From NCBI RefSeq assembly GCF_964355755.1, contig NC_092672.1:18675237-18739236 (forward strand): 64,000 nt of DNA, written 5' to 3'. Both the position numbers and the translations under genes were made by a program. How positions within the stretch are numbered: position 1 is the first letter of the stretch; every line of letters begins with the position of its first letter. The notes beneath the pieces are model-generated. The model had not been told where the DNA came from and did no database searches. It saw nothing but the letters and a program-made list of their open reading frames with translations. Positions 12,591 through 64,000 of this stretch are shown here, piece by piece. The stretch is from Antedon mediterranea. Lineage: Eukaryota; Animalia; Echinodermata.

Positions 12591-12600
12591 ATATAGTCTA

Positions 12601-13521: not shown

Positions 13522-13552
13522 ATAAAAGAAAACAATGGAATACAAATTATTG
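13522..13552 (+). CDS. ARMC5: ARMC5-like gene, 31-nt exon 2 (IKENNGIQII)
   Basis: TTTTTTTCAG|ATA...ATTG|GTAAGC; phase 0 in and phase 1 out, exactly bridging exon 1 and exon 3 and completing an ARM repeat (NGIQIIVNILKS...RAARALGNIS). Confidence 0.8.
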
Positions 13553-25110: not shown

Positions 25111-25272
25111 ACAAATAATGAATGTTTTGTATTCGTGTAATGGTACAAATAATGGCACTTGGTGAATGATGAAAGGTTATATCAACTCGGCTTTGCCTCG
25201 TTGATATAACCTTTCATCATTCACCTCGTGCCATTATTTGTACCATTGCACTCATAAACATTCATTATTTGT
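25111..25272. repeat. ~160-bp near-perfect palindrome (hairpin-type interspersed repeat)
   Basis: acaaataatgaatg...ggtgaatgatgaaaggttatatcaac-loop-gttgatataacctttcatcattcacc...cattcattatttgt. Confidence 0.85.
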
Positions 25273-25309
25273 ATACTATGGAATCGACACCTGTACGCTA
25301 CAAAATATG

Positions 25310-25720
25310 CGTACTAAGCCACTCTTTCATTCGGCGTCTGTCTGAGCACGTGTGAGTAAATCACCGCAATAAAAGAACGAGCGCTTCCGATGTCTTGGAA
25401 TTCAAAGTGGTGCCAGATAATACATGATTTGCCATCCATACTAAAAGGTCGTACGTCATACGATAATTATAGTTATATTCAGATAGGAGAAAATGACATA
25501 GGGAATGACATAGCGAACATCATGATACACTATTGGTCTTTCATAGACTACCTATTGCTGGGGACAGACGTCAAATTAGTGATCGTAGGTGAACTCATCC
25601 GTAGACTACCAAAGAACGCGATACATGTTCAGTACTACAATTAAGAAGGTGAATAATAACTTGGCAACATGTTTCACCGACCATCCTAAAGTTATTTTTT
25701 GGAGACACCGTGGTCTCGTT
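25310..25720 (+). pseudogene. Decayed SGNH-hydrolase-like ORF of the kind carried by Ngaro/DIRS tyrosine-recombinase retrotransposons
   Basis: Fragments VLSHSFIRRL, IQIGENDI, VIVGELIRR, FTDHPKVIFWRHRGL resemble SGNH blocks; frame is disrupted. Confidence 0.5.
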
Positions 25721-25958
25721 GTTTCACATTCTTCATTATTATCTAAACAAAAACTATTGACGATTTAATTACATATTTTGCGTCGGATAATTTGTAGAAC
25801 TAAGCTGTACTAACGATTACTGAGAGTTTTGCTGGTAATCTAATATGATTCATGTTCCAGGCGATTATTGTAGAGTACTTTGAGGCAATAAGTATAAACA
25901 GCAGATGAGAAGATGATAAAGCATAATTCTACAAAATTTTAGTATAGAAATTGAAGCA

Positions 25959-27362
25959 TTATCTCATTGTATTAGATCTACTTGTGGCAGCATATATGTA
26001 ATGATTACTTTGTATTTCTAAATACATGGCATCAACCTCTTTATCATCTGGTGCCTGAGCAGCAAATGATCTTCTCCAGATTGTGGCATCTCTTGTGCGA
26101 GGTAAAGGTAACGTCATTCTATCGCGAGGTTCAAAGTACACTTCAGGTTGATGTACTATTGTTTTAGTTTGATTTGTTGTGATGTTTTTTGAACATAAAC
26201 AATAATAATAAACTGGAATCATAACGATGATTACTAATAAGACTACACAAGCAACAATGATAATGACGATGACGTCAGTAGATAATCCTGAAGATGTTTC
26301 TTTATTTAATGTGTCAATTCCACGTGATTTATTATTTTCATTATCGTCAATAATTACAGAATCTTTAGCTAATGAAACTGTAACATCGTTTTGTGTATCA
26401 GATTGTATCGTTAACGTAACACTTGTTGATGAACTTCCAATTCGATTTTCAGCTGTGCACGTGATCACAGTTCCATCCTGTTTCATTGTAGGATTATACA
26501 ACATTAATATGTGTCCAGTATTATCAATGTTGTATTCTTTGTTGTCGAGTGGGGGAAGAGTTAACCACGTATAACGAGTAACTGCAGGATTAGCGGTAGT
26601 GTCACAAATAAAGAAAGCTTGCTTACCGGCAGATATCAAACCTGTTTGAGGAATGCTAACTCTTGGCTTGTAATATATTGTCAGTGGTTGCGTTGTACAA
26701 TTTCTACTAAGATCAGGAATTTGTACATTTGTCATTGAACACACAGCTTTATTTCCATTTAAATCAGGATTAGCAATTAATCTCTTTTGTAATCTTGCAG
26801 TTTCTCCATCAATTATTTCAACAACATGTGTAGCGCCATCATTCCATCGTAATGTAACTGGCGGTTCTGTATACTCAGAAGCGCAGAAAAGCATGACGTC
26901 ATCACCTTCTGTGTAAACATCCTTAGATGACGTACATAATGGATATTTCTCATGAGGAATTTGCAATACATTTAAAAATGCTTTATCTGATTCTAGTAAA
27001 AGACTATTATTTCCAAATACGTCACACTGATAAAATCCCCGATCGCTATTCAAAACGCTATAGAAAAAAATATTGTAAATTATCCGCTTAGGAGGCCTAT
27101 TATTATCTTCATTTATTGTGACAATAAAGTTGTGTTGTATTTTCAAATCCTCTCGTACAATGTCATCAGTGGCAATGTATTCTCCATCTTTCTTCCATTT
27201 AAGTTTGTACTGGCTTGTAAAGGTTGTATCAAATTCTACAATGCAAATTAACGAAGCTGCTCTTTTTGCTCTTACTGTTGAATTTGATGGATGTCCGTCA
27301 AATAGAAGACTATTCGTCAAATTCACAAAAAGGACAATAGTAGTACACAATATTGATAACAT
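25959..27362 (-). CDS. IgSF receptor A1 (SP-V-Ig-Ig-TM-tail), intronless CDS; V type a
   Basis: Signal peptide; V-set C..W..DRGFYQC; two more Cys-paired Ig domains; TM DVIVIIIVACVVLLVIIVMIPVYYY; 467 aa. Confidence 0.92.
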   Translation of the reverse strand: MLSILCTTIVLFVNLTNSLLFDGHPSNSTVRAKRAASLICIVEFDTTFTSQYKLKWKKDGEYIATDDIVREDLKIQHNFIVTINEDNNRPPKRIIYNIFFYSVLNSDRGFYQCDVFGNNSLLLESDKAFLNVLQIPHEKYPLCTSSKDVYTEGDDVMLFCASEYTEPPVTLRWNDGATHVVEIIDGETARLQKRLIANPDLNGNKAVCSMTNVQIPDLSRNCTTQPLTIYYKPRVSIPQTGLISAGKQAFFICDTTANPAVTRYTWLTLPPLDNKEYNIDNTGHILMLYNPTMKQDGTVITCTAENRIGSSSTSVTLTIQSDTQNDVTVSLAKDSVIIDDNENNKSRGIDTLNKETSSGLSTDVIVIIIVACVVLLVIIVMIPVYYYCLCSKNITTNQTKTIVHQPEVYFEPRDRMTLPLPRTRDATIWRRSFAAQAPDDKEVDAMYLEIQSNHYIYAATSRSNTMR

Positions 27363-27628
27363 TTTGATTAATAAACTCGATTTTTTAAGTTACATTCTTC
27401 CAGATAAATTATTATTTACTACATTTCGAAAAAATATATTGTTCTCCAAAAGGAAAATTACTTTTTCAATAATGCAGATATTTAACGTTAATACATCAGT
27501 GGTATATGTCCAAACAAATTGATGGTTATGTTTCGCGTTTAAAGGAAACCTACAAAAACAAATTGTATAAGCCGAATTAAGCATTTATGTTTCATAATAT
27601 ATGAGATTGAAATGTATGCGAGAAAATG

Positions 27629-29023
27629 TTATCGCATTGTATTAGATCTACTTGTGGCAGCATATATATAATGATTACTTTGTATTTCTAAATACATGGC
27701 ATCAACCTCTTTATCATCTGGTGCCTGAGCAGCAAACGATCTTCTCCAGATTGTGGCATCTCTTGTGCGAGGTAAAGGTAACGTCATTCTATCGCGAGGT
27801 TCAAAGTACACTTCAGGTTGATGTACTATTGTTGTAGTTTGATTTGTTGTGATGTTTCTTGAACATAAACAATAATAATAAACTGGAATCATAACGATGA
27901 TTACTAATAAAACTACACAGGCAACAATGATAATGACGATGACGTCAGTAGATAATCCCGAAGATATTTCTTTACTTGCAGTTTTATTACCAAGTGATTT
28001 ATTATTTTCATTATAACCAATAATTACAGAATCTTTAGCTGTTGAAACTGTAACATCTTTTTGTGTATCAGATTGTATCGATAACGTAACACTTGTTGAT
28101 GAACTTCCAATTCGATTTTCAGCTGTGCACGTGATTACAGTTCCATCCTGTTTCATTGTGGGATTATACAACATTAATATGTGTCCAGTATTATCAATGT
28201 TGTATTCAGTTTTGTTGAGTGGTGGAAGAGTTAACCATGTATAAATAGTAACTGCAGGATTAGCGGTAGTGTCACAAATGAAGAAAGCTTGCTTACCAGC
28301 AGATATCAAACCTGTTTGAGGAATGCTAACTCTTGGTTTGTAATATATTGTTAGTGGTTGCGTTGTGCAATTTCTATTAAGATCAGGAATGTGTTCATTT
28401 GTCATTGAACACACAGCTTTATATCTATTTAAATCAGGATTAGCAATTAACCTTTTTTGTAATCTTGCGGTTTCTCCATCAACTATTTCAACAACATGTG
28501 TAGCGCCATCATTCCATCGTAATGTTACTGGCGGTTCTGTATACTCAGAAACGCAGAAAAGCATGACGTCATCACCTTCTGTGTAAACATCCTTAGATGC
28601 TGTACATAATGGATATTCATCGCCAGGAATTTGTATTACATCAAAAAATGCTTTATTTGACTCAAGTACAAGAGTGTTATTTTCAAATACGTCACATTGA
28701 TAAAATCCACGATCGCTATTCCAAACACTATTGAACATAAGATTATACGTAATAGTCCCGGTGTTTCTACTCACATCAACAACAAAATGATTTGAATTTT
28801 CCAAATCTTCTCTTATTTTATCTTCAGTGGCAATATATCCATTGTCATTTTTCTTCCATCTTATCTTGTATTGGTATTCAAGACTAAGTTGTGTTTTTAA
28901 AATACAAATTAACGAGCTAGTTTCTTTTACGTTAGATGTAGAGTTTCTGGGATGGTAATCGAAAGACAAACAGCGTGCAAGTTGAAACAATACTACTTCA
29001 AACAATACTACAACAATCTTCAT
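27629..29023 (-). CDS. IgSF receptor A2; V type b
   Basis: Same architecture, 464 aa. Confidence 0.92.
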   Translation of the reverse strand: MKIVVVLFEVVLFQLARCLSFDYHPRNSTSNVKETSSLICILKTQLSLEYQYKIRWKKNDNGYIATEDKIREDLENSNHFVVDVSRNTGTITYNLMFNSVWNSDRGFYQCDVFENNTLVLESNKAFFDVIQIPGDEYPLCTASKDVYTEGDDVMLFCVSEYTEPPVTLRWNDGATHVVEIVDGETARLQKRLIANPDLNRYKAVCSMTNEHIPDLNRNCTTQPLTIYYKPRVSIPQTGLISAGKQAFFICDTTANPAVTIYTWLTLPPLNKTEYNIDNTGHILMLYNPTMKQDGTVITCTAENRIGSSSTSVTLSIQSDTQKDVTVSTAKDSVIIGYNENNKSLGNKTASKEISSGLSTDVIVIIIVACVVLLVIIVMIPVYYYCLCSRNITTNQTTTIVHQPEVYFEPRDRMTLPLPRTRDATIWRRSFAAQAPDDKEVDAMYLEIQSNHYIYAATSRSNTMR

Positions 29024-29491
29024 TGTTTATGTTATTACCGTATTAGAAATGATGTTTTACACTGTGATGTCTCAAAACAATCTCTGATAATATTCCTAAA
29101 ATGAACAGCAAACGACTGCGAATTTATAATTTTAGAGAGACATGTCCAGACAAATATATGATTTTGGTACTCGTTTTGAAGAAACTTATAAAATTAAAAA
29201 AAGTAAGAATATACATCAGTGTCACCTTTCATTAATCTTACTTATGTAAAAGTATGATAGACTTGCAAAATGATTTACGAGAGTTTTTACTTCAATGATT
29301 GCTGGAATATGTTACGTTATTGAATTAGGCATAACTCTTCGTAAATGATAGGAAAATATAAAAGGATATTATTTCTCATTATAATATTATCTACTTCTAT
29401 AGGTAGTACCATATTAATTTATACATCAACATTGTGAAAGTTAAGGTTGTACTCACTGAAAAAGGTAATATATTATATTGAATGAGCATTA

Positions 29492-30883
29492 TCATCTCAT
29501 TGTATTAGATCTACTTGTGGCAGCATAAATGTAATGATTACTTTGTATTTCTAAGTACATGGCATCAACCTCTTTATCGTCTGGTGCCTGAGCAGCAAAC
29601 GATCTTCTCCAGATTGTGGCATCTCTTGTGCGAGGTAAAGGTAACGTCATTCTATCGCGAGGTTCAAAGTACACTTCAGGTTGATGTACTATTGTTGTAG
29701 TTTGATTTGTTGTGATGTTTTTTGAACATAAACAATAATAATAAACTGGAATCATAACGATGATTACTAATAAGACTACACAGGCAACAATGATAATGAC
29801 GATGACGTCAGTAGATAATCCTGGAGATATTTCTTTACTTGCAGTTTTATTACTAAGTGATTTATTATTTTCATTATAATCAATAATTACAGAATCTTTA
29901 GCTGTTGAAACTGTGACATCGTTTTGTGTATCAGATTGTATCGTTAACGTAACACTTGTTGATGAACTTCCAATTCGATTTTCAGCTGTGCACGTGATTA
30001 CAGTTCCATCAAGTTTCATTGTTGGATTAGACAACATAAATATGTGTCCAGTATTATCAATGTTGTATTCAGTTTTGTCGAGTGGTGGAAGAGTTAACCA
30101 TGTATAAATGGTAACTGTAGGATTAGCGGTAGTGTCACAAATAAAGAAACCTTGCTTACCAGCAGATATCAAACCTGTTTGAGGAATGCTAACTCTTGGT
30201 TTGTAATATATTGTCAGTGGTTGCGTTGTACAATTTCTATTAAGATCAGGAATGTGTTCATTTGTCATTGAACACACAGATTTATATCCATTTAAATCAG
30301 GATTAGCAATTAATCTCTTTTGTAATCTTGCACTTTCTCCATCAACTATTTCAACAACATGTGTAGCGCCATCATTCCATCGTAACGTTACCGGAGGTTC
30401 TGTATACTCAGAAACGCAGAAAAGCATGACGTCATCACCTTCTGTGTAAACGTCTTTAGATTCTGTACATAATGGATATTTATCATCAGGAATTTGTATT
30501 ACCTCTAAAAATGCTTTATTTGACTCCAGTACAAGACTGCTATTTTCAAATACATCACACTGATAAAATTCACGATCACTATTCCAAATACTTATGAATA
30601 TCAGATCAAATTTAATTCTGTTATTGATTCTGTTAATAGTCACTACAAAATGGCGTTTATCGTCAATGTCTTCTCGTAAATTTCTGTTTGTAGCTATGTA
30701 TTCCTTGTTTTTCTTCCATTTCAAATCATAATTGCTTTTATCAGAACCTTTAAGTTCAATAATACAAACAAGCGAAACTGTCTCTTTTACATTAGCCGTG
30801 ATGTTAAAAGGATGTTCATAAAACTGTAGACTATTAACTACATTAAAGAAGTAGCTGAAAATAATAATAAAAATTCGTTTCAT
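29492..30883 (-). CDS. IgSF receptor A3; V type c (start taken at MKRIF)
   Basis: Same architecture; ATG at 30883 directly precedes the signal peptide. Confidence 0.92.
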   Translation of the reverse strand: MKRIFIIIFSYFFNVVNSLQFYEHPFNITANVKETVSLVCIIELKGSDKSNYDLKWKKNKEYIATNRNLREDIDDKRHFVVTINRINNRIKFDLIFISIWNSDREFYQCDVFENSSLVLESNKAFLEVIQIPDDKYPLCTESKDVYTEGDDVMLFCVSEYTEPPVTLRWNDGATHVVEIVDGESARLQKRLIANPDLNGYKSVCSMTNEHIPDLNRNCTTQPLTIYYKPRVSIPQTGLISAGKQGFFICDTTANPTVTIYTWLTLPPLDKTEYNIDNTGHIFMLSNPTMKLDGTVITCTAENRIGSSSTSVTLTIQSDTQNDVTVSTAKDSVIIDYNENNKSLSNKTASKEISPGLSTDVIVIIIVACVVLLVIIVMIPVYYYCLCSKNITTNQTTTIVHQPEVYFEPRDRMTLPLPRTRDATIWRRSFAAQAPDDKEVDAMYLEIQSNHYIYAATSRSNTMR

Positions 30884-31167
30884 TCTGGCTGAACTGGCAA
30901 TTTGAAATGTTAAAAATCTTCTTGAATAAACACCTTCCAGCACATAACGTATTAAAGACAAACGCTTCTTTAATGACTACCTTCAATGAAAAAAATATTC
31001 AACAAGCTATACGTACTTGACTCCATTACACAGCTTTCCAAAATGTCCTATAAAATTCAATTTTATGTTTCGCGTTTTGACAAAACCGTTTATTTCAGAA
31101 TTCAAAGATCATTAGAAAGTGTTATTTGTTTAAGAATATTAAAATATCACAATTCCTCTTGAACGTT

Positions 31168-32538
31168 CTATCTCATTGTGTTAGATCTACTGGTGGCAGC
31201 ATAAATGTAGTGATTACTTTGTATTTCCAAGTACATTGCATCAACCTCTTTATCATCTGGTGCTTGAGCAGCAAATGATCTTCTCCAGATTGTGGCATCT
31301 CTTGTGCGAGGTAAAGGTAACGTCATTCTATCGCGAGGTTCAAAGTACACTTCAGGTTGATGTACTATTGTTGTAGTTTGATTTGTTGTGATGTTTCTTG
31401 AACATAAACAATAATAATAAACTGGAATCATAACGATGATTACTAATAAAACTACACAAGCAACAATGATAATGACGATGACGTCAGTAGATAATCCTGA
31501 CGACGTTTCTTTATTTACAGTGTTATTCCCACGTGATTTATTGTTTGTATTATAATCAATAATTACAGAATCTTGAGCTGATGTAACTGTATCAGATTGT
31601 ATCGTTAACGTAACACTCTTTGATGAAGTTCCAATTCGATTTTCAGCTGTGCACGTGATTACAGTTCCATCCTGTTTCATTGTAGGATTATACAACATAA
31701 ATATATGTCCAGTATTATCAATGTTGTATTCAGTTTTGTCGAGTGGTGGAAGAGTTAACCATGTATAAATAGTAACTGCAGGATTAGCGGTAGTGTCACA
31801 AATAAAGAAAGCTTGCTTACCGGCAGATATCAAACCTGTTTGAGGAATGCTAACTCTTGGTTTGTAATATATTGTCAGTGGTTGCGTTGTGCAATTTCTA
31901 TTAAGATCAGAAATTTGTACATTTGTCATTGAACATACATCTTTATATCCATTTAAATCAGGATTAGCAATTAATCTCTTTTGTAATCTTGCAGTTTCTC
32001 CATCAACTATTTCAACAACATGTGTAGCGCCATCATTCCATCGTAATGTTACTGGCGGTTCTGTATACTCAGAAACGCAGAAAAGCATGACGTCATCACC
32101 TTCTGTGTAAACATCATTCGATGCTGTACATAATGGATATTTATCATCAGGAATTTGTATTACATCCAAAAATGCTTTATTTGACTCAAGTACAACGACG
32201 TTACTTTCAAATATGTCGCATTGGTAAATTCCACGATCACTGTTCCATACACTAATGAACACAAGGTTGAAAGTTATTTCCAAAATGCTTCTACTTACAG
32301 TGACAATAAAATGACTGGTATCTACTAGGTCATCTCGAATGTCCCCATTAGTGGCTATATATTCTTCGTCTTTCTTCCATTTTATATCATATTGTCTTTT
32401 ATTGTTTGTCTCATATTCAGCAATACAAGTTAGCGAAACTGTTCCCATTGCTTCAATTGTTACATTCAATGGTTGTTTATCAAATACAAGAGAATTTGAA
32501 GAACGAAGCAAAACTGTAATTATCATTAACAATAGCAT
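31168..32538 (-). CDS. IgSF receptor A4; V type d
   Basis: Same architecture, 456 aa, shortened stalk. Confidence 0.92.
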   Translation of the reverse strand: MLLLMIITVLLRSSNSLVFDKQPLNVTIEAMGTVSLTCIAEYETNNKRQYDIKWKKDEEYIATNGDIRDDLVDTSHFIVTVSRSILEITFNLVFISVWNSDRGIYQCDIFESNVVVLESNKAFLDVIQIPDDKYPLCTASNDVYTEGDDVMLFCVSEYTEPPVTLRWNDGATHVVEIVDGETARLQKRLIANPDLNGYKDVCSMTNVQISDLNRNCTTQPLTIYYKPRVSIPQTGLISAGKQAFFICDTTANPAVTIYTWLTLPPLDKTEYNIDNTGHIFMLYNPTMKQDGTVITCTAENRIGTSSKSVTLTIQSDTVTSAQDSVIIDYNTNNKSRGNNTVNKETSSGLSTDVIVIIIVACVVLLVIIVMIPVYYYCLCSRNITTNQTTTIVHQPEVYFEPRDRMTLPLPRTRDATIWRRSFAAQAPDDKEVDAMYLEIQSNHYIYAATSRSNTMR

Positions 32539-32799
32539 CTTGACTACCTTAGTCTATACAATCAATGTAAACTATTATATAATGAATGCATTATTACAGG
32601 TGTAATATATTGCAATATAGTATAGCCATCGAAGTAGACATTTTCTTGCCGGGTTTGAAAACACATTGGCACAGCAATTACAATAGCTCTATGTTATGCT
32701 AGATTAATGTCCATTTAAAATAAAAATTGTGTTTAACGTTTTACAAAAATGGTATTTATCAAAAGAAATAGCATACCAATTTAAATTCATAATAACGTA

Positions 32800-34194
32800 T
32801 TATCTCATTGTATTAGATCTACTTGTGGCAGCATATATGTAATGATTACTCTGTATTTCTAAATACATGGCATCAACCTCTCTATCGTCTGGTGCCTGAG
32901 CAGCAAACGATCTTCTCCAGATTGTGGCATCTCTTGTGCGAGGTAAAGGTAACGTCATTCTGTCGCGAGGTTCAAAGTACACTTCAGGTTGATGTACTAT
33001 TGTTTTTGTTTGATTTCTTGTGATGTTTCTTGAACATAAACAATAATAATAAACTGGAATCATAACGATGATTACTAATGAAACTACACAAGCAACAATG
33101 ATAATGACGATGACGTCAGTAGATAATCCTGTAGATGTTTCTTTATTTACAGTGTTATTTCCACGTGATTTATTATTTCCATTATAATCAATAATTACAG
33201 AATCTTGAGCTGATGTAACTGTAACATCATTTTGTGTATCAGATTGTATCGTTAACGTAACACTCGTTGATGAACTTCCAATTTGATTTTCAGCTGTGCA
33301 CGTGATTACAATTCCATCATGTTTCATTGTGGGATTATACAACATTAATATGTGTCCAGTATTATCAATGTTGTATTCTTTGTTGTCGAATGGTGGAAGA
33401 GTTAACCATGTATAACGAGTAACTGCAGGATTAGCGGTAGTGTCACAAATGAAGAAAGCTTGCTTACCAGCGGATATCAAACCTGTTTGAGGAGGAATGC
33501 TAACTCTTGGTTTGTAATATATTGTCAGTGGTTGCGTTGTACAATTTCTATTAAGATCAGGAATGTGTTCATTTGTCATTGAACACACAGCTTTATATCC
33601 ATTTAAATCAGGATTAGCAATTAACCTCTTTTGTAATCTTGCAGTTTCTCCATCAACTATTTCAACAACATGTGTAGCGCCATCATTCCAACGTAACGTT
33701 ACTGGAGGTTCTGTATACTCAGAAGCGCAGAAAAGCATGACGTCATCACCTTCTGTGTAAACATCCTTAGATGCAGTACATAATGGGTATTTATCTCCCG
33801 GAATTTGTATTACATCAAGAAATGCTTTATTTGACTCCAGTACAAGTATATCCTTTTCAACAACATCACATTGATAAAATGCTCGATCACTGTTCCTTAT
33901 CCTTATAAAGACAAGATTAAAATTAATACGGACATCGGTCTTGCTATAGGTTACAACAAAATGGCTTGTATCTCTAATGTCCTCTCGTATGTTGCCATTT
34001 GTAGCAATATATTTTTCGTTTTTCTTCCACTTCATCTCATATTCATGTATGCCCAATGAGTGTAGTTCTACGCTGCAAATCAACGAAACTGTTCCCTCTG
34101 CTTTGACAGTAAAGTTGGATGGATGGTCATAGAACTGCAGACTATTTATTAGATAAAATAGATAGCTAAATATAGTGATAGCAAATAATTTCAT
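32800..34194 (-). CDS. IgSF receptor A5; V type e
   Basis: Same architecture, 464 aa. Confidence 0.92.
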   Translation of the reverse strand: MKLFAITIFSYLFYLINSLQFYDHPSNFTVKAEGTVSLICSVELHSLGIHEYEMKWKKNEKYIATNGNIREDIRDTSHFVVTYSKTDVRINFNLVFIRIRNSDRAFYQCDVVEKDILVLESNKAFLDVIQIPGDKYPLCTASKDVYTEGDDVMLFCASEYTEPPVTLRWNDGATHVVEIVDGETARLQKRLIANPDLNGYKAVCSMTNEHIPDLNRNCTTQPLTIYYKPRVSIPPQTGLISAGKQAFFICDTTANPAVTRYTWLTLPPFDNKEYNIDNTGHILMLYNPTMKHDGIVITCTAENQIGSSSTSVTLTIQSDTQNDVTVTSAQDSVIIDYNGNNKSRGNNTVNKETSTGLSTDVIVIIIVACVVSLVIIVMIPVYYYCLCSRNITRNQTKTIVHQPEVYFEPRDRMTLPLPRTRDATIWRRSFAAQAPDDREVDAMYLEIQSNHYIYAATSRSNTMR

Positions 34195-34428
34195 CTTTAA
34201 TAAAACTGGTCAACTTGATCGTGATATTCGTCTTCAATAATCATATCTCAGGAAGTAATACTGTTTAAGAAAATGTCCAACTACCTACATCATTTTTAGC
34301 TGATAGAGAAATCATATTATTGACAAAACACATCTACAGTATTCTATCTGTCCTATACAATTAAAAACTGTGTTTCCCGTTTCTTTAAAACACTAATTTC
34401 AATAGAATTCCACAATTGCAATACCAAT

Positions 34429-35823
34429 CTATCTCATTGTATTAGATCTACTTGTGGCAGCATATATGTAGTGATTGCTTTGTATTTCCAAGTACATTGC
34501 ATCAACCTCTTTATCATCTGGTGCCTGAGCAGCAAATGATCTTCTCCAGATTGTGGCATCTCTTGTGCGAGGTAAAGGTAACGTCATTCTATCGCGAGGT
34601 TCAAAGTACACTTCAGGTTGATGTACTATTGTTGTAGTTTGATTTGTTGTGATGTTTCTTGAACATAAACAATAATAATAAACTGGAATCATAACGATGA
34701 TTACTAATAAAACTACACAAGCAACAATGATAATGACGATGACGTCAGTAGATAATCCTGACGACGTTTCTTTACTTATAGTGTTATTCCCACGTGATTT
34801 ATTGTTTTTATTATAATCAATAATTACAGTATTTTGAACTGATTTAACTGTGACATCGTTTTGTGTATCAGATTGTATCGTTAACGTAAAACTTGTTGAT
34901 GAACTTCCAATTTGATTTTCAGCTGTGCACGTGATTACAGTTCCATCCTGTTTCATTGTGGGATTATATAACATTAATATATGTCCAGTATTATCAATGT
35001 TGTATTCAATATTGTCGAGTGGTGGAAGAGTTAACCATGTATAACGAGTAACTGCAGGATTAGCGGTAGTGTCACAAATAAAGAAAGCTTGCTTACCGGC
35101 AGATATCAAACCTGTTTGAGGAGGAATGCTAACTCTTGGTTTGTAATATATTGTCAGTGGTTGCGTTGTACAATTTCTATTAAGATCAGGAATGTGTTCA
35201 TTTGTCATTGAACACATAGCTTTATATCCATTTAAATCAGGATTAGCAATTAACCTCTTTTGTAATCTTGCAGTTTCTCCATGAACTATTTCAACAACAT
35301 GTGTAGCGCCATCATTCCATCGTAATGTTACTGGTGGTTCTGTATACTCAGAAGCGCAGAAAAGCATGACGTCATCACCTTCTGTGTAAACATCCTGAGA
35401 TGCTGTACATAATGGGTATTTACCTCCAGGAATTTGTATTACATCAAAAAATGCTTTATTTGACTCCAGTACAAGAGTATTTTTTCCAAATACGTCACAT
35501 TGATACAATCCACGATCACTATTCCAAATACTTATGAACATAAGAATAAATTTAATTTGGTTATTTATTCTCCGCATAGTCACTACAAAATGACTCTTAT
35601 CGTTAATATCTTCTCGTACATGTCCGTCTGTAGCTATGTATTCCTCATTTTTCTTCCATTTCAACTCATAATTTCCTTTATCAAAATCTTTTAATTTTAA
35701 AATACAATCAAGCGAAGCTGTTTCTTTTACATTAACAGTGTTGTTAAATGGATGTTTATCAAACCGCAGACTACAAATGAGACAGAATAAATAACAAAAT
35801 ACAGTAATAGAAAATAGTTTCAT
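34429..35823 (-). CDS. IgSF receptor A6; V type c-like
   Basis: Same architecture, 464 aa. Confidence 0.92.
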   Translation of the reverse strand: MKLFSITVFCYLFCLICSLRFDKHPFNNTVNVKETASLDCILKLKDFDKGNYELKWKKNEEYIATDGHVREDINDKSHFVVTMRRINNQIKFILMFISIWNSDRGLYQCDVFGKNTLVLESNKAFFDVIQIPGGKYPLCTASQDVYTEGDDVMLFCASEYTEPPVTLRWNDGATHVVEIVHGETARLQKRLIANPDLNGYKAMCSMTNEHIPDLNRNCTTQPLTIYYKPRVSIPPQTGLISAGKQAFFICDTTANPAVTRYTWLTLPPLDNIEYNIDNTGHILMLYNPTMKQDGTVITCTAENQIGSSSTSFTLTIQSDTQNDVTVKSVQNTVIIDYNKNNKSRGNNTISKETSSGLSTDVIVIIIVACVVLLVIIVMIPVYYYCLCSRNITTNQTTTIVHQPEVYFEPRDRMTLPLPRTRDATIWRRSFAAQAPDDKEVDAMYLEIQSNHYIYAATSRSNTMR

Positions 35824-36088
35824 CTTGGCTGAATTTGAAATACCTTTTTAAATAAACATTTTGAAGCACATAAAGGCAACTAGTTCCTTAGCAATTACCT
35901 TCCTCATTGTCACATAATAAAGCAAGAACATTTACTTATCGACGCTACTTTACACAGCTATTCCTAATGTCCTACTTAATACGATATTATGTTTAGCGTT
36001 TTGCTAAAACAAGTTTATTTCAGAATACACACACCAAATAAAAAAAACACTATTGACAACCATTTTAAGCTAATACCATAAAAACGTT

Positions 36089-37480
36089 CTATCTCATTGT
36101 ATTACATCTACTTGTGGCAGCATAGATGTAATGATTACTTTGTATTTCCAAGTACATGGCATCAACCTCTTTATCATCTGGTGCTTGAGCAGCAAATGAT
36201 CTTCTCCAGATTGTGGCATCTCTTGTGCGAGGTAAAGGTAACGTCATTCTATCGCGAGGTTCAAAGTACACTTCAGGTTGATGTACTATTGTTGTAGTTT
36301 GATTTGTTGTGATGTTTTTTGAACATAAACAATAATAATAAACTGGAATCATAACGATGATTACTAATAAAACTACACAAGCAACAATGATAATGACGAT
36401 GACGTCAGTAGATAATCCTGTAGATGTTTCTTTATTGACAGTGTTATTTCCACGTGATTGATTATTTTCATTATAATTAATAATTACAGAATCTTGAGCT
36501 GATGTAACTCTAACATCTTTTTGTGTATCAGATTGTATCGATAACGTAACACTCGTTGATGAACTTCCAATTCGATTTTCAGCTGTGCACGTGACCACAG
36601 TTCCATCCTGTTTCATTGTGGGATTAGACAACATAAATATGTGTCCAGTATTATCAATGTTGTATTCAGTTTTGTCGAGTGGGGGAAGAGTTAACCATGT
36701 GTAACGAGTAACTGCCGGATTAGCGGTAGTCTCACAAATAAAGAAACCTTGCTTACCAGCAGATATCAAACCTGTTTGACGAATGCTAACTCTTGGTTTG
36801 TAATATATTGTCAGTGGTTGCGTTGTACAATTTCTATTAAGATCAGGAATGTGTTCATTTGTCATTGAACACACAGATTTATATCCATTTAAATCAGGAT
36901 CAGCAATTAATCTCTTTTGTAATCTTGCACTTTCTCCATCAACTATTTCAACAACATGTGTAGCGCCATCATTCCATCGTAACGTTACCGGAGGTTCTGT
37001 ATACTCAGAAACGCAGAAAAGCATTACGTCATCACCTTCTGTGTAAACGTCTTTAGATTCTGTACATAATGGATATTTATCATCAGGAATTTGTATTACA
37101 TCTAAAAATGCTTTATTTGACTCTAGTACAAGACTGCTATTTTCAAATACATCACATTGGTAAAATCCCCGATCGCTATTCAAAACCCCATAGAAAAAAA
37201 TATTGTAAATAATTTGCATATTATCTTCATTTATTGTGACAATAAAGTTTTGCGATGTTTTCAAATCCTCTCGTAAAACGTCGTTAATGGCAATGTATTC
37301 TCCATCTTTCTTCCATTTAAGTTTGTACTGGCTTGTAATCGTTGTATCAAATTCTACAATGCAAATTAACAAAACTGCTCCTTTAGCTTTTACAGTTGAA
37401 TTTGATGGTTGTTTATCAAACACAAGACAATTCGTAATGTTAAAAAACAGAAAAATATAACTAAGCACTGTTAATAGCAT
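36089..37480 (-). CDS. IgSF receptor A7; V type a-like
   Basis: Same architecture, 463 aa. Confidence 0.92.
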   Translation of the reverse strand: MLLTVLSYIFLFFNITNCLVFDKQPSNSTVKAKGAVLLICIVEFDTTITSQYKLKWKKDGEYIAINDVLREDLKTSQNFIVTINEDNMQIIYNIFFYGVLNSDRGFYQCDVFENSSLVLESNKAFLDVIQIPDDKYPLCTESKDVYTEGDDVMLFCVSEYTEPPVTLRWNDGATHVVEIVDGESARLQKRLIADPDLNGYKSVCSMTNEHIPDLNRNCTTQPLTIYYKPRVSIRQTGLISAGKQGFFICETTANPAVTRYTWLTLPPLDKTEYNIDNTGHIFMLSNPTMKQDGTVVTCTAENRIGSSSTSVTLSIQSDTQKDVRVTSAQDSVIINYNENNQSRGNNTVNKETSTGLSTDVIVIIIVACVVLLVIIVMIPVYYYCLCSKNITTNQTTTIVHQPEVYFEPRDRMTLPLPRTRDATIWRRSFAAQAPDDKEVDAMYLEIQSNHYIYAATSRCNTMR

Positions 37481-37758
37481 CTTGATTAATATTCTTGATT
37501 TTTAAGATGGCTACAGTTCTCTAGATCAATAGTTACTTACTGTACTTCGAAAGTAGTAGTAGTAGTTTTCGCAAAGCAACGTTACAATGGAAACGACAAT
37601 GAATATAGTTATTATATTCTTTATCAATGGGCAATGTCCAAATGAATTGGTGGTTGTGTTTCACGTTCTCAAAAAACGTTACATAAACAGATTATATCAC
37701 CAGAAATAAGTATTGCTGTTGACACATTATATGAGATAGAAATGTATGCGGGAAAGTG

Positions 37759-39153
37759 TTACCGCATTGTATTACATCTACTTGTGGCAGCATATATGTA
37801 ATGATTACTTTGTATTTCCAAGTACATGGCATCGACCTCTTTATCATCTGGTGCCTGAGCAGCAAACGATCTTCTCCAGATTGTGGCATCTCTTGTGCGA
37901 GGTAACGGTAACGTCATTCTATCGCGAGGTTCAAAATACACTTCAGGTTGACGTACTATTGTTGTAGTTTGATTTGTTGTGATGTTTCTTGAACATAAAC
38001 AATAATAATAAACTGGAATCATAACGATGATTACTAATAAAACTACACAAGCAACAATGATAATGACGATGACGTCAGTAGATAATCCTGTAGATGTTTC
38101 TTTATTGACAGTGTTATTTCCACGTGATTGATTATTTTCATTATAATCAATAATTACAGAATCTTTAGCTGTTGAAACTGTGACATCATTTTGTGTATCA
38201 GATTGTATCGTTAACGTAACACTTGTTGATGAACTTCCAATTTGATTTTCAGCTGTGCACGTGATTACAGTTCCATCCTGTTTCATTGTGGGATTATACA
38301 ACATTAATATGTGTCCAGTATTATCAATGTTGTATTCAGTTTTGTCGAGTGGTGGAAGAGTTAACCATGTATAAATAGTAACTGCAGGGTTAGCGGTAGT
38401 GTCACAAATGAAGAAAGCTTGCTTACCGGCAGATATCAAACCTGTTTGAGGAATGCTAACTCTTGGTTTGTAATATATTGTCAGTGGTTGCGTTGTACAA
38501 TTTCTATTAAGATCAGGAATTTGTATATTTGTCATTGAACATACAACTTTATATCCAATTAATTCAGGATTAGCAATTAATCTCTTTTGTAATCTTGCAG
38601 TTTCTCCATCAACTATCTCAACAATATGTGTAGCGCCATCATTCCATCGTAATGTTACTGGCGGTTCTGTATACTCAGAAATACAGAAAAGCATGACGTC
38701 ATCACCTTCTGTGTAAACATCCTGAGATGCTGTACATAATGGGTATTTATCTCCAGGAATTTGTATTACATCAAAAAATGCTTTATTTGACTCCAGTACA
38801 AGAGTATTATTTTCAAATATTTCACATTGATAAAATCCACGATCGCTATTCCAAACACTATTGAACATAAGATTATACGTAATAGTCCCGGTGTTTCTAC
38901 TCACATCGACAAAAAAATGATTTAAATTTTTCAAATCTTCTCTTATTTTATCTTCAGTGGCAATATATCCATTGCCATTTTTCTTCCATCTTATCTTGTA
39001 TTGGTATTCAAGACTAAGTTGTGTTTTTAAAATACAAATTAACGAGCTAGTTTCTTTTACGTTAGATGTAGAGTTTCTAGGATGGTAATCGAAAGACAAA
39101 CAGCGTGCAAGTTGAAACAATACTACTTCAAACAATACTACAACAATCTTCAT
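37759..39153 (-). CDS. IgSF receptor A8; V type b
   Basis: Same architecture, 464 aa. Confidence 0.92.
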   Translation of the reverse strand: MKIVVVLFEVVLFQLARCLSFDYHPRNSTSNVKETSSLICILKTQLSLEYQYKIRWKKNGNGYIATEDKIREDLKNLNHFFVDVSRNTGTITYNLMFNSVWNSDRGFYQCEIFENNTLVLESNKAFFDVIQIPGDKYPLCTASQDVYTEGDDVMLFCISEYTEPPVTLRWNDGATHIVEIVDGETARLQKRLIANPELIGYKVVCSMTNIQIPDLNRNCTTQPLTIYYKPRVSIPQTGLISAGKQAFFICDTTANPAVTIYTWLTLPPLDKTEYNIDNTGHILMLYNPTMKQDGTVITCTAENQIGSSSTSVTLTIQSDTQNDVTVSTAKDSVIIDYNENNQSRGNNTVNKETSTGLSTDVIVIIIVACVVLLVIIVMIPVYYYCLCSRNITTNQTTTIVRQPEVYFEPRDRMTLPLPRTRDATIWRRSFAAQAPDDKEVDAMYLEIQSNHYIYAATSRCNTMR

Positions 39154-39601
39154 TGTTTATGTTATTATCGTATTAGAAATGATGTTTTACACTATGTTGT
39201 CTCGAAACAATCTCTGATAATATTCCTAAAATGAACAGCAAACGACTGCGAATTTATAATTTTAGAAACATGTCCAGACAAATATATGATTTTGGTACTC
39301 GTTTTGAGGAAACTATATAAGTAAGAATCTACATCAGTGTCACCTTTCATTAATCTTACTTATGTAAAAGTATGATAGACTTGCAAAATGATTTAAGAAA
39401 CTTTTTACTTCACTGATTGCTGGAAAATGTTACGTTATTGAATTAGGCATAACTCATCGTAAATGATAGGAAAATATAAAAGGATATTATTTCTCATTAT
39501 AATATTATCTACTTCTATAGGTAGTACCATATTAATTTATACATCAACATTGTGAAAGTTAAGGTTGTACTCTCTGAAAAAGGTAATAGGAAAGAGGCTT
39601 A

Positions 39602-40996
39602 TTAGCTAATTGTATTAGATCTACTTGTGGCAGCATATATGTAATGATTACTCTGTATTTCCAAATACATGGCATCAACCTCTTTATCATCTGGTGCCTG
39701 AGCAGCAAATGATCTTCTCCAGATTGTGGCATCTCTTGTGCGAGGTAAAGGTAACGTCATTCTATCGCGAGGTTCAAAGTACACTTCAGGTTGATGTACT
39801 ATTGTTGTAGTTTGATTTGTTGTGATATTTCTTGAACATAAACAATAATAATAAATTGGAATCATAACGATGATTACTAATAAAACTACACAGGCAACAA
39901 TGATAATGACGATGACGTCAGTAGATAATCCCGAAGATGTTTCTTTATTTAATGTGTCATTTCCACGTGATTTATTATTTTCATTATGATCAATAATTAC
40001 AGAATCTTTAGCTTTTGAAACTGTAACATCGTTTTGTGTATCAAATTGTATCATTAACGTAACACTCGTTGATGAATTTCCAATTCGATTTACAGCTGTG
40101 CACGTGATTACAGTTCCATCATGTTTCATTGTTGGATTAGACAACATAAATATGTGTCCAGTATTATCAATGTTGTATTCAGTTTTTTCGAGTGGTGGAA
40201 GAGTTAACCATGTATAAATAGTAACTGCAGGATTAGCGGTAGTGTCACAAATAAAGAAAGCTTGCTTACCGGCAGATATCAAACTTTTTTGAGGAATGCT
40301 AACTCTTGGTTTGTAATATATTGTCAGTGGTTGCGTTGTACAATTTCTATTAAGATCAGGAATGTGTTCATTTGTCATTGAACACACAGCTTTATATCCA
40401 TTTAAATCAGGATTAGCGATTAACCTTTTTTGTAATCTTGCAGTTTCTCCATGAACTATTTCAACAACATGTGTAGCGCCATCATTCCATCGTAATGTTA
40501 CCGGAGGTTCTGTATACTCAGAAGCGCAGAAAAGCATGACGTCATCACCTTCTGTGTAAACATCCTGAGATGCTGTACATAATGGGTATTTATCTCCAGG
40601 AATTTGTATTACATCAAAAAATGCTTTATTTGACTTCAGTACAAGAATATCATTTTTAAATACGTCACATTGATAAAATCCACGATCGCTATTCCAAATA
40701 CTTATGAATATCAGATTATACGTAATAGTCCCGATGTTTCTACTTACATCAACAAAAAAATGATTTAAATTTTCCAAATCTTCTCTTATTTTATCTTCAG
40801 TGGCAATATATTCATTGTCATTTTTCTTCCATCTTATCTTGTATTGGTATTCAAGACTAGGTTGTGTTTTTAAAATACAAATTAACGAGCTAGTTTCTTT
40901 TACGTTAGATGTAGAGTTTCTTGGGTGGTAATCGAAAGACAAACAGCGTGCAAGTTGAAACAATACTACTTCGAACAATACTACAACAATCTTCAT
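39602..40996 (-). CDS. IgSF receptor A9; V type b with a type-c patch
   Basis: Same architecture, 464 aa; C-terminus NTIS. Confidence 0.92.
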   Translation of the reverse strand: MKIVVVLFEVVLFQLARCLSFDYHPRNSTSNVKETSSLICILKTQPSLEYQYKIRWKKNDNEYIATEDKIREDLENLNHFFVDVSRNIGTITYNLIFISIWNSDRGFYQCDVFKNDILVLKSNKAFFDVIQIPGDKYPLCTASQDVYTEGDDVMLFCASEYTEPPVTLRWNDGATHVVEIVHGETARLQKRLIANPDLNGYKAVCSMTNEHIPDLNRNCTTQPLTIYYKPRVSIPQKSLISAGKQAFFICDTTANPAVTIYTWLTLPPLEKTEYNIDNTGHIFMLSNPTMKHDGTVITCTAVNRIGNSSTSVTLMIQFDTQNDVTVSKAKDSVIIDHNENNKSRGNDTLNKETSSGLSTDVIVIIIVACVVLLVIIVMIPIYYYCLCSRNITTNQTTTIVHQPEVYFEPRDRMTLPLPRTRDATIWRRSFAAQAPDDKEVDAMYLEIQSNHYIYAATSRSNTIS

Positions 40997-41454
40997 TGTT
41001 TATGTTATTATCGTATTAGAAATGATGTTTTACACTATGATGTCTCGAAACAATCTCTGATAATATTCCTAAAATGAACAGCAAACGACTGCGAATTTAT
41101 ATTATTAGAGACATGTCCAGACAAATATATGATTTTGGTACTCGTTTTGAGGAAACTTATAACATTAATTAAAGTAAGAATCTACATCAGTGTCACCTTT
41201 CATTAATCTTACTTATGTAAAAGTATGATAGACTTGCAAAATGATTTAAGAGACTTTTTACTTCACTGATTTCTTGAAAATGTTACGTCATTGAATTAGG
41301 CATAACTCTTCGTAAATGATAGGAAAATATAAAAGGATATTATTTTTCATTATAATATTATCTACTTCTATAGGTAGTACCATATTAATTTATACATCAA
41401 CATTGTGAAAGTTAAGGTTTTACTCTCTGAAAAAGGTAATATGAAAGAGGCTTA

Positions 41455-42831
41455 TTATCTCATTGTATTAGATCTACTTGTGGCAGCATATATGTAATGA
41501 TTACTCTGTATTTCCAAATACATGGCATCAACCTCTTTATCGTCTGGTGCCTGAGCAGCAAATGATCTTCTCCAGATTGTGGCATCTCTTGTGCGAGGTA
41601 AAGGTAACGTCATTCTATCGCGAGGTTCAAAGTACACTTCAGGTTGATGTACTATTGTTGTAGTTTGATTTGTTGTGATGTTTCTTGAACATAAACAATA
41701 ATAATAAACTGGAATCATAACGATGATTACTAATAAAACTACACAAGCAACAATGATAATGACGATGACGTCAGTAGATAATCCTGTAGATGTTTCTTTA
41801 TTTACAGTGTTATTTCCACGTGATTTATTATTTCCATTATAATTAATAATTACAGTATCTTGAGCTGATGTAACTGTATCAGATTGTATCGTTAACGTAA
41901 CATTCTTTGATGAAGTTCCAATTCGATTTTCAGCTGTGCACGTGATTACAGTTCCATCCTGTTTCATTGTGGGATTAGACAACATTAATATGTGTCCAGT
42001 ATTATCAATGTTGTATTCAGTTTTGTCGAGTGGTGGAAGAGTTAACCATGTATAACGAGTAACTGCAGGATTAGCGGTAGTGTCACAAATAAAGAAAGCT
42101 TGCTTACCAGCGGATATCAAACCTGTTTGAGGAATGCAAACTCTTGGCTTGTAATATATTGTCAGTGGTTGCGTTATACAAGTTCTATTAAGATCAGGAA
42201 TGTGTTCATTTGTCATTGAGCATACAGCTTTATATCCATTTAAATCAGGATTAGCAATTAACCTCTTTTGTAATCTTGCAGTTTCTCCATGAACTATTTC
42301 AACAACATGTGTAGCGCCATCATTCCATCGTAATGTTACTGCCGGTTCTGTATACTCAGAAACACAGAAAAGCATGACGTCATCACCTTCTGTGTAAACA
42401 TCCTTAGATGCAGTACATAATGGGTATTTATCTCCAGGAATTTGTATTACATCCAAAAATGCTTTTGTTGACGCCAGTACAATATTTTCAGTTTTGAAAA
42501 CATCACATTGATAAAATCCACGATCAGTATTCCAAACACTTACAAAGACAAGATCGAATTTAATTCGTGTACTACTTCTTCGTATTGTAACAATAAAATG
42601 ACTTGAATCTTTTAGATTATCCACTATATTTCCATTAGTAGCAATATATTCTTCGTCTTTCTTCCACTTCATATCATATTGTATTTCGTCGTTTGTTTTA
42701 TATTCTACAATACATGTAAGTGAAACTGCTCCTTCTGCTTGTACGGTTGAATTTAATGGATGCTCATCAAATAAAAGACAGCTTGTAAAACGAAATAAAA
42801 GAACATTAACAGCAAACACAAACCTTAACAT
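41455..42831 (-). CDS. IgSF receptor A10; V type d-like (start taken at MLRFV)
   Basis: Same architecture; shortened stalk as in A4. Confidence 0.92.
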   Translation of the reverse strand: MLRFVFAVNVLLFRFTSCLLFDEHPLNSTVQAEGAVSLTCIVEYKTNDEIQYDMKWKKDEEYIATNGNIVDNLKDSSHFIVTIRRSSTRIKFDLVFVSVWNTDRGFYQCDVFKTENIVLASTKAFLDVIQIPGDKYPLCTASKDVYTEGDDVMLFCVSEYTEPAVTLRWNDGATHVVEIVHGETARLQKRLIANPDLNGYKAVCSMTNEHIPDLNRTCITQPLTIYYKPRVCIPQTGLISAGKQAFFICDTTANPAVTRYTWLTLPPLDKTEYNIDNTGHILMLSNPTMKQDGTVITCTAENRIGTSSKNVTLTIQSDTVTSAQDTVIINYNGNNKSRGNNTVNKETSTGLSTDVIVIIIVACVVLLVIIVMIPVYYYCLCSRNITTNQTTTIVHQPEVYFEPRDRMTLPLPRTRDATIWRRSFAAQAPDDKEVDAMYLEIQSNHYIYAATSRSNTMR

Positions 42832-43069
42832 TCTTGAATAATTTTGAAAATACGTATTATACATAATTAGTATCATTCCCATATAAACGTATACTTTTGT
42901 AGTATATTGTCGAAACGTTTAAATATTGAGTAAATGTTTAATCATTACCATAGCACACGTATTAATAATTGAACTTGTCAGAAACATGCTCAGCTGAATT
43001 TGTTATTATGTTACGCGTTCTTAATTATAACAAAAAACAGAAACATATTATGCACAGTAACTTACTTAG

Positions 43070-43180
43070 TATATAGCAATGGTTACTCTGTATTTCCAAG
43101 TACATTGCATCAACCTCTTTATCATCTGGTGCTTGAGCAGCAAACGATCGTCTCCAGATTGCGGCATCTCTTGTGCGAGG
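43070..43180 (-). pseudogene. Truncated cytoplasmic-tail relic of an eleventh cluster A gene
   Basis: Near-identical to the tail-coding DNA (PRTRDAAIWRRSFAAQAPDDKEVDAMYLEIQSNH); homology stops abruptly at 43180. Confidence 0.85.
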
Positions 43181-43319
43181 TTTTCATATGTGTTATTTAT
43201 TAATATAATATACTGGATATAAGTATATTTATTGTATTTTTTTATATTAAATCTTATCTTTGTTTTATTGTTTTTATTATGTTTATTACATTTTTTTATG
43301 GAAAAACAAGAAAGACAAG

Positions 43320-57490: not shown

Positions 57491-58879
57491 CTAAAGTGTG
57501 TTTTGATTGTTTCTGTCTCCAATGTACGTATATCCTTGTACATCAAGATCTTCAGGAACTTGAGAAGCAAATGAATGTCTCCAGTGACCATAATGTCCAG
57601 TACTTGGTAATCGAGGTAAAGATCGATCATAAAGACCACTATTTGAAACTCGATCTCTGGTATCATAGTACACAGTAGGTTGATATATCTCTCTACCAGA
57701 TGAATCAGTAGCAGTCCTTGTCTTACAGAAGCATTGATAATAAACAGGAATGATGACAACAACTACAACAATAATGACGACTAATATGATAATAATGATC
57801 ACAACATACAAAGAGATTTCCCTTTTGTCTCCTAAATCATCTGATAAAAGCATTTTATTTTCATCTTCATAGTCTGATTCGGAATTTCCACCCGTATTGC
57901 CATGATGTACATTACTATTCCGTTTCTCTTCACTAATGTATAATACAACTGTATGTGACGTTTCACCTACCACATTTTTACCTGTACATGTTATCTTAGT
58001 TCCATTGTGCTTGCGTGTGGGTTGCAAAAGACGGAATACTTGTCCATCATTTTCATATTCATTGACATCTAGCATTGGCAGAGAAATCCATTCATATTGT
58101 TTCACCGGTGGGTTTGCAAATGATTGACAAAATAGTATAGCATCAGATCCTGTATATATAACATCAGTATGTTGAATTTTTATGACTGGTTTGTAATAAA
58201 TATTTAAATTGTCGACTACACAGAAAGCAACATATGGCTGTTGTTTTACATGCGAAGATTGTTTACAAGTAAATGCATATTTTTTTTCAGCTTTTTTAGC
58301 ATTAAATGTCAAATTTGTATAAAAAAATTTTCCCCACACGTTACTTCGTACACCACTTGTAATTATCGTACCATTTTCATGTATCCAATTAAGTTCAACT
58401 GGTGGTTTGATAAGTTCACTTACGCATGATAATGTTATAGTAGATCCAACAATAAAACTGTCTCCAGAACCAATACACTGTGGGTAATCAGAAGATGGTA
58501 TTTGAAGTACCGTAAGATGCGCCGTGCCAGATCTTATGTTTTCATCTTCTTGTAGTCTACAGTGATAATCGTCTTCGTCTGTTAATGTAACATCTGATAT
58601 CACCAATGAATACATACGCATTTCACCAGAAGGAACTTTCAAGGAAGACATGGACATTCGGGCATTTTCATCCTTTATATTTTCATTTAGATCTGCTAAC
58701 TTACTACGTCCTTTCCACCAAGAAACGGCATTAACTACATCTTCAGAAATAAAACAAGAAAGAACTGCTTGTTTTCCTTCTATTACAGATACATCTTCAA
58801 GTTTTCCAACAAAACTAACACAACTAACGCCTAAAATGTGTGTCCACAGAAACAGTATAGTTACAATAATGTTTCCCAT
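57491..58879 (-). CDS. IgSF receptor B1 (SP-V-Ig-Ig-TM-tail), intronless CDS
   Basis: V-set LSC..WWK..DEDDYHC; TM LYVVIIIIILVVIIVVVVVIIPVYY; tail homologous to cluster A; 462 aa. Confidence 0.92.
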   Translation of the reverse strand: MGNIIVTILFLWTHILGVSCVSFVGKLEDVSVIEGKQAVLSCFISEDVVNAVSWWKGRSKLADLNENIKDENARMSMSSLKVPSGEMRMYSLVISDVTLTDEDDYHCRLQEDENIRSGTAHLTVLQIPSSDYPQCIGSGDSFIVGSTITLSCVSELIKPPVELNWIHENGTIITSGVRSNVWGKFFYTNLTFNAKKAEKKYAFTCKQSSHVKQQPYVAFCVVDNLNIYYKPVIKIQHTDVIYTGSDAILFCQSFANPPVKQYEWISLPMLDVNEYENDGQVFRLLQPTRKHNGTKITCTGKNVVGETSHTVVLYISEEKRNSNVHHGNTGGNSESDYEDENKMLLSDDLGDKREISLYVVIIIIILVVIIVVVVVIIPVYYQCFCKTRTATDSSGREIYQPTVYYDTRDRVSNSGLYDRSLPRLPSTGHYGHWRHSFASQVPEDLDVQGYTYIGDRNNQNTL

Positions 58880-63856: not shown

Positions 63857-64000
63857 TTAATCTTGAAGTGTATTTTGATTGTTCTTATCTTCAATATACG
63901 TATATCCTTGTACATCAAGATCTTCAGGAACTTGAGAAGCAAATGAATGTCTCCAGTGACCATAATGTCCAGTACTTGGTAATCGAGGTAAAGATCGATC
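63857..64000 (-). CDS. IgSF receptor B4, 3' end only (runs off the window)
   Basis: ...DRSLPRLPSTGHYGHWRHSFASQVPEDLDVQGYTYIEDKNNQNTLQD*. Confidence 0.8.
   Translation of the reverse strand, partial: DRSLPRLPSTGHYGHWRHSFASQVPEDLDVQGYTYIEDKNNQNTLQD

Follow-up and report, generated by a model that had tools for sequence, protein, structure and literature searches.

Clustered protocadherins are missing in echinoderms according to the excerpted text of PMC10734073; how cells of this phylum might carry individual surface identities is therefore, as we infer, a question. A stretch of 64,000 nucleotides (nt) from the feather star Antedon mediterranea (assembly GCF_964355755.1, contig NC_092672.1, positions 18,675,237 to 18,739,236; below, the window, numbered from its first letter) offers a candidate locus: a compact array of genes encoding immunoglobulin (Ig) domains, with one well-defined element of 44 base pairs (bp) per gene. 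The window holds cluster A, ten head-to-tail open reading frames (ORFs) on the minus strand that encode 456–475 amino acids (aa) at one per 1.6–1.9 kb, and cluster B, with three more ORFs and the tail of a fourth gene. Here we ask what the 44-bp element is, whether selection maintains it, and what it might do.

A 44-bp module upstream of each gene of cluster A

The original prediction placed a bipartite motif, TGTCC followed on the plus strand by a second block after exactly 17 bases, upstream of every gene of cluster A. Coordinates, letters and the 17-base gap were right at all ten sites, and a loose regular expression matched no further site on either strand of the window. Read on the coding (minus) strand, the motif is part of a gap-free 44-bp module, GTTT-N5-AAACG-N3-A-CA-A-N8-TT-N5-GGACAT, which occurs once per A gene (10/10), always on the same strand, and has 14 of its 44 columns invariant in all ten copies. 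It comprises a GTTT-N5-AAAC palindrome (exact in seven copies of ten), an invariant AACG, the A-CA-A block, an invariant TT pair and GGACAT, with conserved and free columns interleaved. The AAAC reported a few bases beyond the second block is indeed present, at a fixed place, where it forms half of the palindrome. RRACA is repeated 22 bp apart, and the centres of two small palindromes are 21 bp apart.

The module ends 116–168 bp before the ATG, whereas its distance to the preceding stop codon spreads more widely (37–306 bp). No insertion or deletion is found within the 44 bp, while the module-to-ATG lengths take seven values between 116 and 168. Measured from TGTCC, the earlier range of 118–170 bp holds for A1–A9; for A10 the distance is 105 or 156 bp, depending on the start codon. 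The A ORFs are single and intronless, encoding a signal peptide, three Ig domains, a transmembrane segment and a tyrosine-bearing tail (Pfam assigned Ig families to A1, B1 and B3), and are separated by spacers of 234–468 bp. Genes and modules of cluster A are as follows, all on the minus strand.

25959..27362, minus: A1, 467 aa, composed as above, last gene of the array; its module, 27506..27549, minus
27629..29023, minus: A2, 464 aa; its module, 29142..29185, minus
29492..30883, minus: A3, 463 aa; its module, 31043..31086, minus
31168..32538, minus: A4, 456 aa; its module, 32707..32750, minus
32800..34194, minus: A5, 464 aa; its module, 34348..34391, minus
34429..35823, minus: A6, 464 aa; its module, 35967..36010, minus
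36089..37480, minus: A7, 463 aa; its module, 37634..37677, minus
37759..39153, minus: A8, 464 aa; its module, 39270..39313, minus
39602..40996, minus: A9, 464 aa; its module, 41113..41156, minus
41455..42882, minus: A10, 475 aa from the first ATG; the second ATG, at 42831, corresponds to the starts of the other genes and gives 458 aa; its module, 42986..43029, minus, the most diverged copy, with the palindrome lost and the 14 invariant columns kept
43063..43181, minus: remnant of an A-type 3' end, 119 bp, directly before the A10 module

The remnant is 91–92% identical to the tails of the A genes, compared with 96% among the A genes themselves, and ends in a splice-donor-like AGTAAGT at 43066. 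This isolated cytoplasmic-tail fragment may be taken as a sign of a lost eleventh gene.

The CpG of the module is invariant in all ten copies, and had been proposed as a hint of methylation sensitivity. We find little support for this: cluster A is not CpG-depleted (observed/expected ratio 0.82 in coding sequence and 0.91 in the spacers, in contrast to 0.26 in the exons of ARMC5 on the plus strand, 6093–17305), so a retained CpG, invariant as it is, is unsurprising.

Ten copies, six lineages

The signal peptide and V domain are 44–65% identical between lineages of A genes. Everything downstream of the V domain as far as the stop codon, two thirds of each gene, shares 94–96% DNA identity. The spacers can be aligned only within their own V lineage (flank alignment Z 4.5–28 within lineages and at most 3.0 between them), which bears out the earlier remark that they do not align across V types. 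Since the spacer follows the V lineage and the tails are homogenized, the diverging unit consists of spacer, signal peptide and V domain. The ten modules, one per gene as predicted, are thus six independent samples: {A1, A7}, {A2, A8, A9}, {A3, A6}, A4, A5 and A10. Positive selection on the V domain as a whole was considered and rejected: the rate of non-synonymous substitutions (dN) was below that of synonymous ones (dS) in all 14 pairs listed.

Conservation of the module

The original prediction called for motif discovery against shuffled controls. A blind ungapped 44-nt search on six of the ten spacers, one per lineage (A2 trimmed to its last 300 nt), returned exactly these sites with 49.3 bits, compared with 35.1 ± 0.8 bits (maximum 37.9) in 400 dinucleotide shuffles, none of which reached the real score; 120 seeds were used for the real run and 30 for each shuffle. 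The module-to-ATG stretches alone scored like shuffles (33.4 vs 33.5 ± 0.7 bits, 585 shuffles). A pattern of 13 invariant letters, itself derived from the sites, had ten matches in the window and a mean of 0.01 in 100 local shuffles. A profile built from eight copies (A8 and A9 being left out as near copies of A2) put the ten sites on top with 22.9–39.0 bits, followed by a site in an ARMC5 intron with 19.5 bits; when each copy was left out in turn, seven of the eight still outscored every other position of the window (22.7–35.0 bits).

The time available for divergence was estimated from the V domains, for which dS between lineages ranges from 1.02 to saturation with a median of 1.45 (15 pairs). 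Under neutral descent at a distance of 1.0, about three of the 44 columns are expected to be invariant on a star tree, and 14 are observed (P about 2e-6). With conserved columns defined from the other lineages, none of the ten differences between A1 and A7 (P 0.012) and none of the nine between A3 and A6 (P 0.020) fell on them. Two further comparisons were uninformative: the pair A2/A8, with a single difference, and the A1 spacer in run X1, with five changes listed, none of them within the module, where about one is expected.

The 17-base middle, described earlier as otherwise divergent, is only partly so: three of its positions are invariant in all ten copies. An explanation without function would be that the module is a residue of common descent, or a patch that gene conversion has carried between copies. 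Gene conversion is active in the array, and the pairwise identity of the middle between lineages (0.35–0.71) is higher than random. However, such a patch should not be bounded on both sides by unalignable flanks, with conserved and free columns alternating inside it, with the hold-out differences avoiding the conserved columns, and with no length change in 44 bp beside seven different distances to the ATG; we consider this explanation very unlikely. Because fourteen invariant columns stand amid unalignable flanks while synonymous sites of the V domains are nearly saturated, the conservation exceeds residual spacer homology and, as judged by sequence comparison, reflects selection.

A putative promoter-proximal element

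No consensus RNA fold was obtained for the module (0 pairs in an alignment of eight of the ten copies), and none of six sub-threshold Rfam matches falls on a module; for these reasons we favor a role at the DNA level. A full copy was found neither behind A1, where none had been seen earlier, nor in cluster B when the window was scanned. Checked for like elements such as a downstream enhancer might hold, the stretch behind A1 (25585–25740, within 400 bp of the gene) has two partial matches to the left block, one of them in reverse orientation; these matches, at 25740 (minus strand, 12.1 bits) and 25605 (plus strand, 12.8 bits), are near chance level, on a scale where true copies score 18.2–27.7 bits and the ARMC5-intron site 14.1 bits.

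The module keeps a narrower range of distances to the ATG than to the stop codon before it, is linked with the downstream V type and is absent after A1; these features favor a promoter-proximal element copied together with each unit of spacer and V domain, a reading to which we assign a probability of roughly 0.6. A shared and selected cis-element per gene stands from the original prediction of a shared promoter element, and its position fits; promoter activity itself is still a prediction. In such a model the module would be a binding site by which every gene has a promoter to itself, all of them under a common transcription-factor input. The array would grow and shuffle through crossover or conversion in the C-terminal two thirds that the genes share, and the units of spacer, signal peptide and V domain would drift apart, with only the bound positions persisting. 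The fixed contacts, spread over about four helical turns, suggest a complex of several subunits or fingers that would bind one face of the helix; transcription would probably start in the stretch from module to ATG. No ATG occurs in the 33 nt that precede the start codon in any of the ten genes, ATGs being common further upstream, a weak post hoc hint at short leaders, in which case the start site would lie well downstream of the module. Contigs of run X1, presumed to be RNA, cross the spacers of A1, A3 and A6 with no GT..AG joint among the six joints listed, and one contig ends at 42909, between the A10 module and the ATG of that gene; as the run may instead be of DNA, these contigs weigh neither for nor against transcription or read-through.

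Several observations weigh against the promoter-proximal reading and against the strength of its statistical basis. The neutral test uses dS as a proxy for distance, and if the distance were 0.5, an invariance of fourteen columns would lose its significance (P 0.17). Left out of the profile, the A10 copy scores 12.1 bits and is exceeded by two other positions of the window. No common TATA-like box follows the module (3/10, all in one lineage), and the three paralogs of cluster B have no module (0/3). All ten copies also follow an A-type 3' end, that of A10 by way of the remnant; AATAAA is present in only two of the ten spacers, which leaves the ends of the upstream transcripts without explanation; and the weakest copy, that of A10, is the one behind the dead remnant, which would likewise be expected if the module served the upstream gene.

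These last three points also speak for a module that serves the upstream unit, as a termination, 3'-end or boundary element against read-through into the next gene, and to them may be added that A1 has no next gene to protect and that the first AATAAA there comes about 1 kb on. On the other hand, the distance to the upstream stop codon varies more than that to the ATG, none of the 14 invariant columns has been lost from the A10 copy behind its remnant, no RNA structure is found, and a genuine 3'-end signal would be expected after A1 as well. We regard this role as unlikely.

Candidate binding factors

With a CTCF consensus and up to two mismatches, three matches were found in the window, none of them in the cluster, with a chance mean of 1.84. 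The Alx1 palindrome TAAT-N3-ATTA is absent from all ten spacers, and an Ets-like core lies inside the module in only three of the ten copies, not consistently. Two further candidates were rejected. If GGACAT were a downstream promoter element, the implied start position would be AAAC, which by eye is not an initiator; and a p53 half-site, RRRCWWGYYY, spans the right block in only four of the ten copies, from two lineages. There are also partial, tentative resemblances to RFX, IRF, STAT, forkhead and E2F sites.

Cluster B and splicing

Cluster B comprises the following features.

57491..58879, minus: B1, related three-Ig gene, about 30% identical to A, module absent upstream
59687..61075, minus: B2, related three-Ig gene, module absent upstream
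61997..63364, minus: B3, related three-Ig gene, module absent upstream
63866..64000: tail part of a fourth B gene

A variant of the module upstream of the B genes was sought and rejected: the best left-block match scored 8.3 bits, and none of 30 spacer comparisons gave an alignment Z above 2.9. Directly before the starts of B1 and B2 (58880–58925 and 61076–61120) we observed AAACA-N21-G(G/A)ACATGTAATG, with an ATG-stop overlapping the true start; it loosely resembles the right end of the module. The upstream regions of B1 and B2 also contain p53-type decamers, at 59050 and 61246.

The B genes bear on another possible function, in which the ORFs would be alternative exons of one transcription unit with a shared untranslated exon, each marked by the module for splicing or exon choice. 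In Anneissia, the consecutive records XP_033118812–818, labeled isoforms X1–X4, encode four different full-length B-type proteins, and these labels suggest a single gene model with a shared exon. In addition, poly(A) signals are scarce, and a donor-like AGTARGT lies 3 nt past the stop codons of B1, B2 and B3 (57487, 59683 and 61993), accounting for three of only 11 such words on the minus strand; with the end of the A remnant (43066) they make four of the 11. Together, the words and the Anneissia labels hint that B genes are spliced to a shared 3' exon. However, this evidence comes from the subfamily without the module. The four Anneissia A-type records have no isoform label, the A start codons share no acceptor upstream of them, and a full complementary docking copy was not found in the window. 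At the matching place the A genes show only AGTAGAT, and synonymous changes continue up to the stop codon. The A ends show no good donor. A read-through splice donor at the A C-terminus was also considered and rejected. We consider a splicing role of the module quite unlikely.

The wider family and variation of the array

The closest outside relatives of A1 are four proteins of the feather star Anneissia japonica with 63–67% identity; the nearest Anneissia proteins are labeled 'kin of IRRE-like' in RefSeq. A protein search with B3 returned 33 proteins. Sorted by tail sequence, the 46 family members fall into subfamilies A (14), B (17) and C (15), each of which forms a clade (local support 99–100) when 43 members are placed in a fast tree (three partial rows omitted; long-branch warning). 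This contig carries at least 21 members, and in Anneissia one 1.3-Mb scaffold carries 22 of the 25 proteins. In the trees the constant parts cluster by species (100/100), and the V domains of A2, A8 and A9 join two Anneissia proteins (92/94, under the star threshold of the tool). When metagenome contigs were searched for crinoid DNA, none of 201 pattern matches was a relative.

The contigs of run X1 suggest either that individuals vary in the array or family or that there are additional members. One of them covers the module block at 31025–31150 with 19 differences, with 107 unalignable letters in place of 30916–31025, as in a further paralog (weak). We also observed in run X1, over 30765–31150, 35509–35670 and 41541, a 641-nt contig resembling a further A3/A6-type gene and a loose end that runs from an A-like tail into different sequence.

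The module could also be a signal for recombination or rearrangement, by which units are deleted or exchanged in the germline or in somatic cells. Its bipartite spacing is fixed, and the array has clearly been reshuffled, as seen from the order of the lineages and the homogenized tails. However, homogenization has its limits at the end of the V domain and at the stop codon, not at the module, and none of the six joints listed for run X1 joins module to module (contigs drop rare variants). The RAG recombination signal has a CAC heptamer, a spacer of 12 or 23 and an A-rich nonamer, while the module has a spacer of 17 and, by eye, no CAC-initiated heptamer on either consensus strand. A signal of this kind is highly improbable.

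Other features of the window

Three observations concern the remainder of the window. A satellite at 17800–22170 consists of about 112 copies of 38/40-bp units and is CpG-free. A 630-aa ORF on the plus strand (42–1934) has no Pfam match. At 24960–25280 lies a high-copy element with inverted ends and very high depth in all four runs; other sequence replaces it in one contig of run X1, and it is likely a polymorphic miniature transposon.

Comparison with known systems

Shared promoter motifs are common in tandem gene families and in themselves an ordinary thing. What appears to be new here is the combination of a rigid 44-bp geometry, very short spacers and a three-subfamily array with variable V domains and constant tails, in a phylum without clustered protocadherins. 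A search of titles and abstract openings in the open-access literature turned up neither the array nor the motif, subscription papers and genome-paper supplements being outside its scope.

The original prediction likened the motif to the conserved sequence element (CSE) of protocadherin promoters, and in layout the likeness holds: in both cases one short element, containing a CpG, is common to otherwise different upstream regions of tandem cell-surface genes (PMC3333863, PMC8787164), with large coding exons and several subfamilies with their own tails. It goes no further. The CSE, an element of 22 bp common to all protocadherin promoters, is bound by CTCF, and methylation is reported to be without effect on complex formation on it (PMC3333863), whereas the crinoid module is 44 bp long and AT-rich, in a cluster without a CTCF consensus. 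Protocadherins have cadherin domains, whereas the crinoid array has Ig domains and units only 1.6–1.9 kb apart; the module is confined to subfamily A, and a shared coding exon, as in the protocadherin alpha and gamma clusters, was not seen. Because the cluster has no CTCF consensus and encodes Ig rather than cadherin domains, the array, judged by its sequence, is not a member of the protocadherin CSE system, the likeness being one of layout only.

Among echinoderm genes, kirrelL is likewise an intronless gene for a three-Ig transmembrane protein, with Alx1 and Ets1 acting on it close to the ATG (PMC8903837), a position also predicted for the control elements of the crinoid genes. Sea urchin embryos are reported to accept upstream DNA of crinoids (PMC8903837). 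However, the Alx1 and Ets1 sites on which kirrelL relies are not consistently present in the module, and Anneissia kirrelL (PMC8903837, supplement 7), compared by eye on partial sequences, differs from the A-type Anneissia proteins, so that cluster A does not look orthologous to it.

Against solved structures, the best matches of a family profile were OPCML (9e-17), DIP-theta (8e-16), SYG-2 (2e-14) and CADM4 (4e-14), while a profile from the A genes alone had no match at 1e-8. These remote matches point to the three-Ig recognition proteins IgLON, DIP, CADM, nectin and SYG/KIRREL, in which the first domain sets specificity. An Ig-based, protocadherin-like code of cell identity might have been built independently in feather stars from three subfamilies with 20–30 single-exon receptors in all, which differ in their first domains and have tails in common; the module would be the handle for a non-CTCF complex, each cell would switch on only some of the A genes, and B genes might splice to a shared exon. 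We offer this by analogy and consider it possible but doubtful.

The sDscam genes of chelicerates, too, form an Ig-superfamily array in an invertebrate; their N-terminal Ig domain is variable, and each unit has its own promoter, which for the crinoid units is a prediction. In sDscam a promoter stands before each cassette and the cassettes splice to common exons (PMC4835542), whereas the crinoid units are whole ORFs whose constant part is kept alike by homogenization. For the crinoid array Pfam reported no FNIII family, and the excerpts of PMC4835542 describe no single motif with fixed spacing. As no more than a shared promoter site, the module would be of modest interest, though still a clean natural footprint of an echinoderm factor; if it supports promoter choice, protocadherins and sDscam would be joined by a third independent solution, and one without CTCF.

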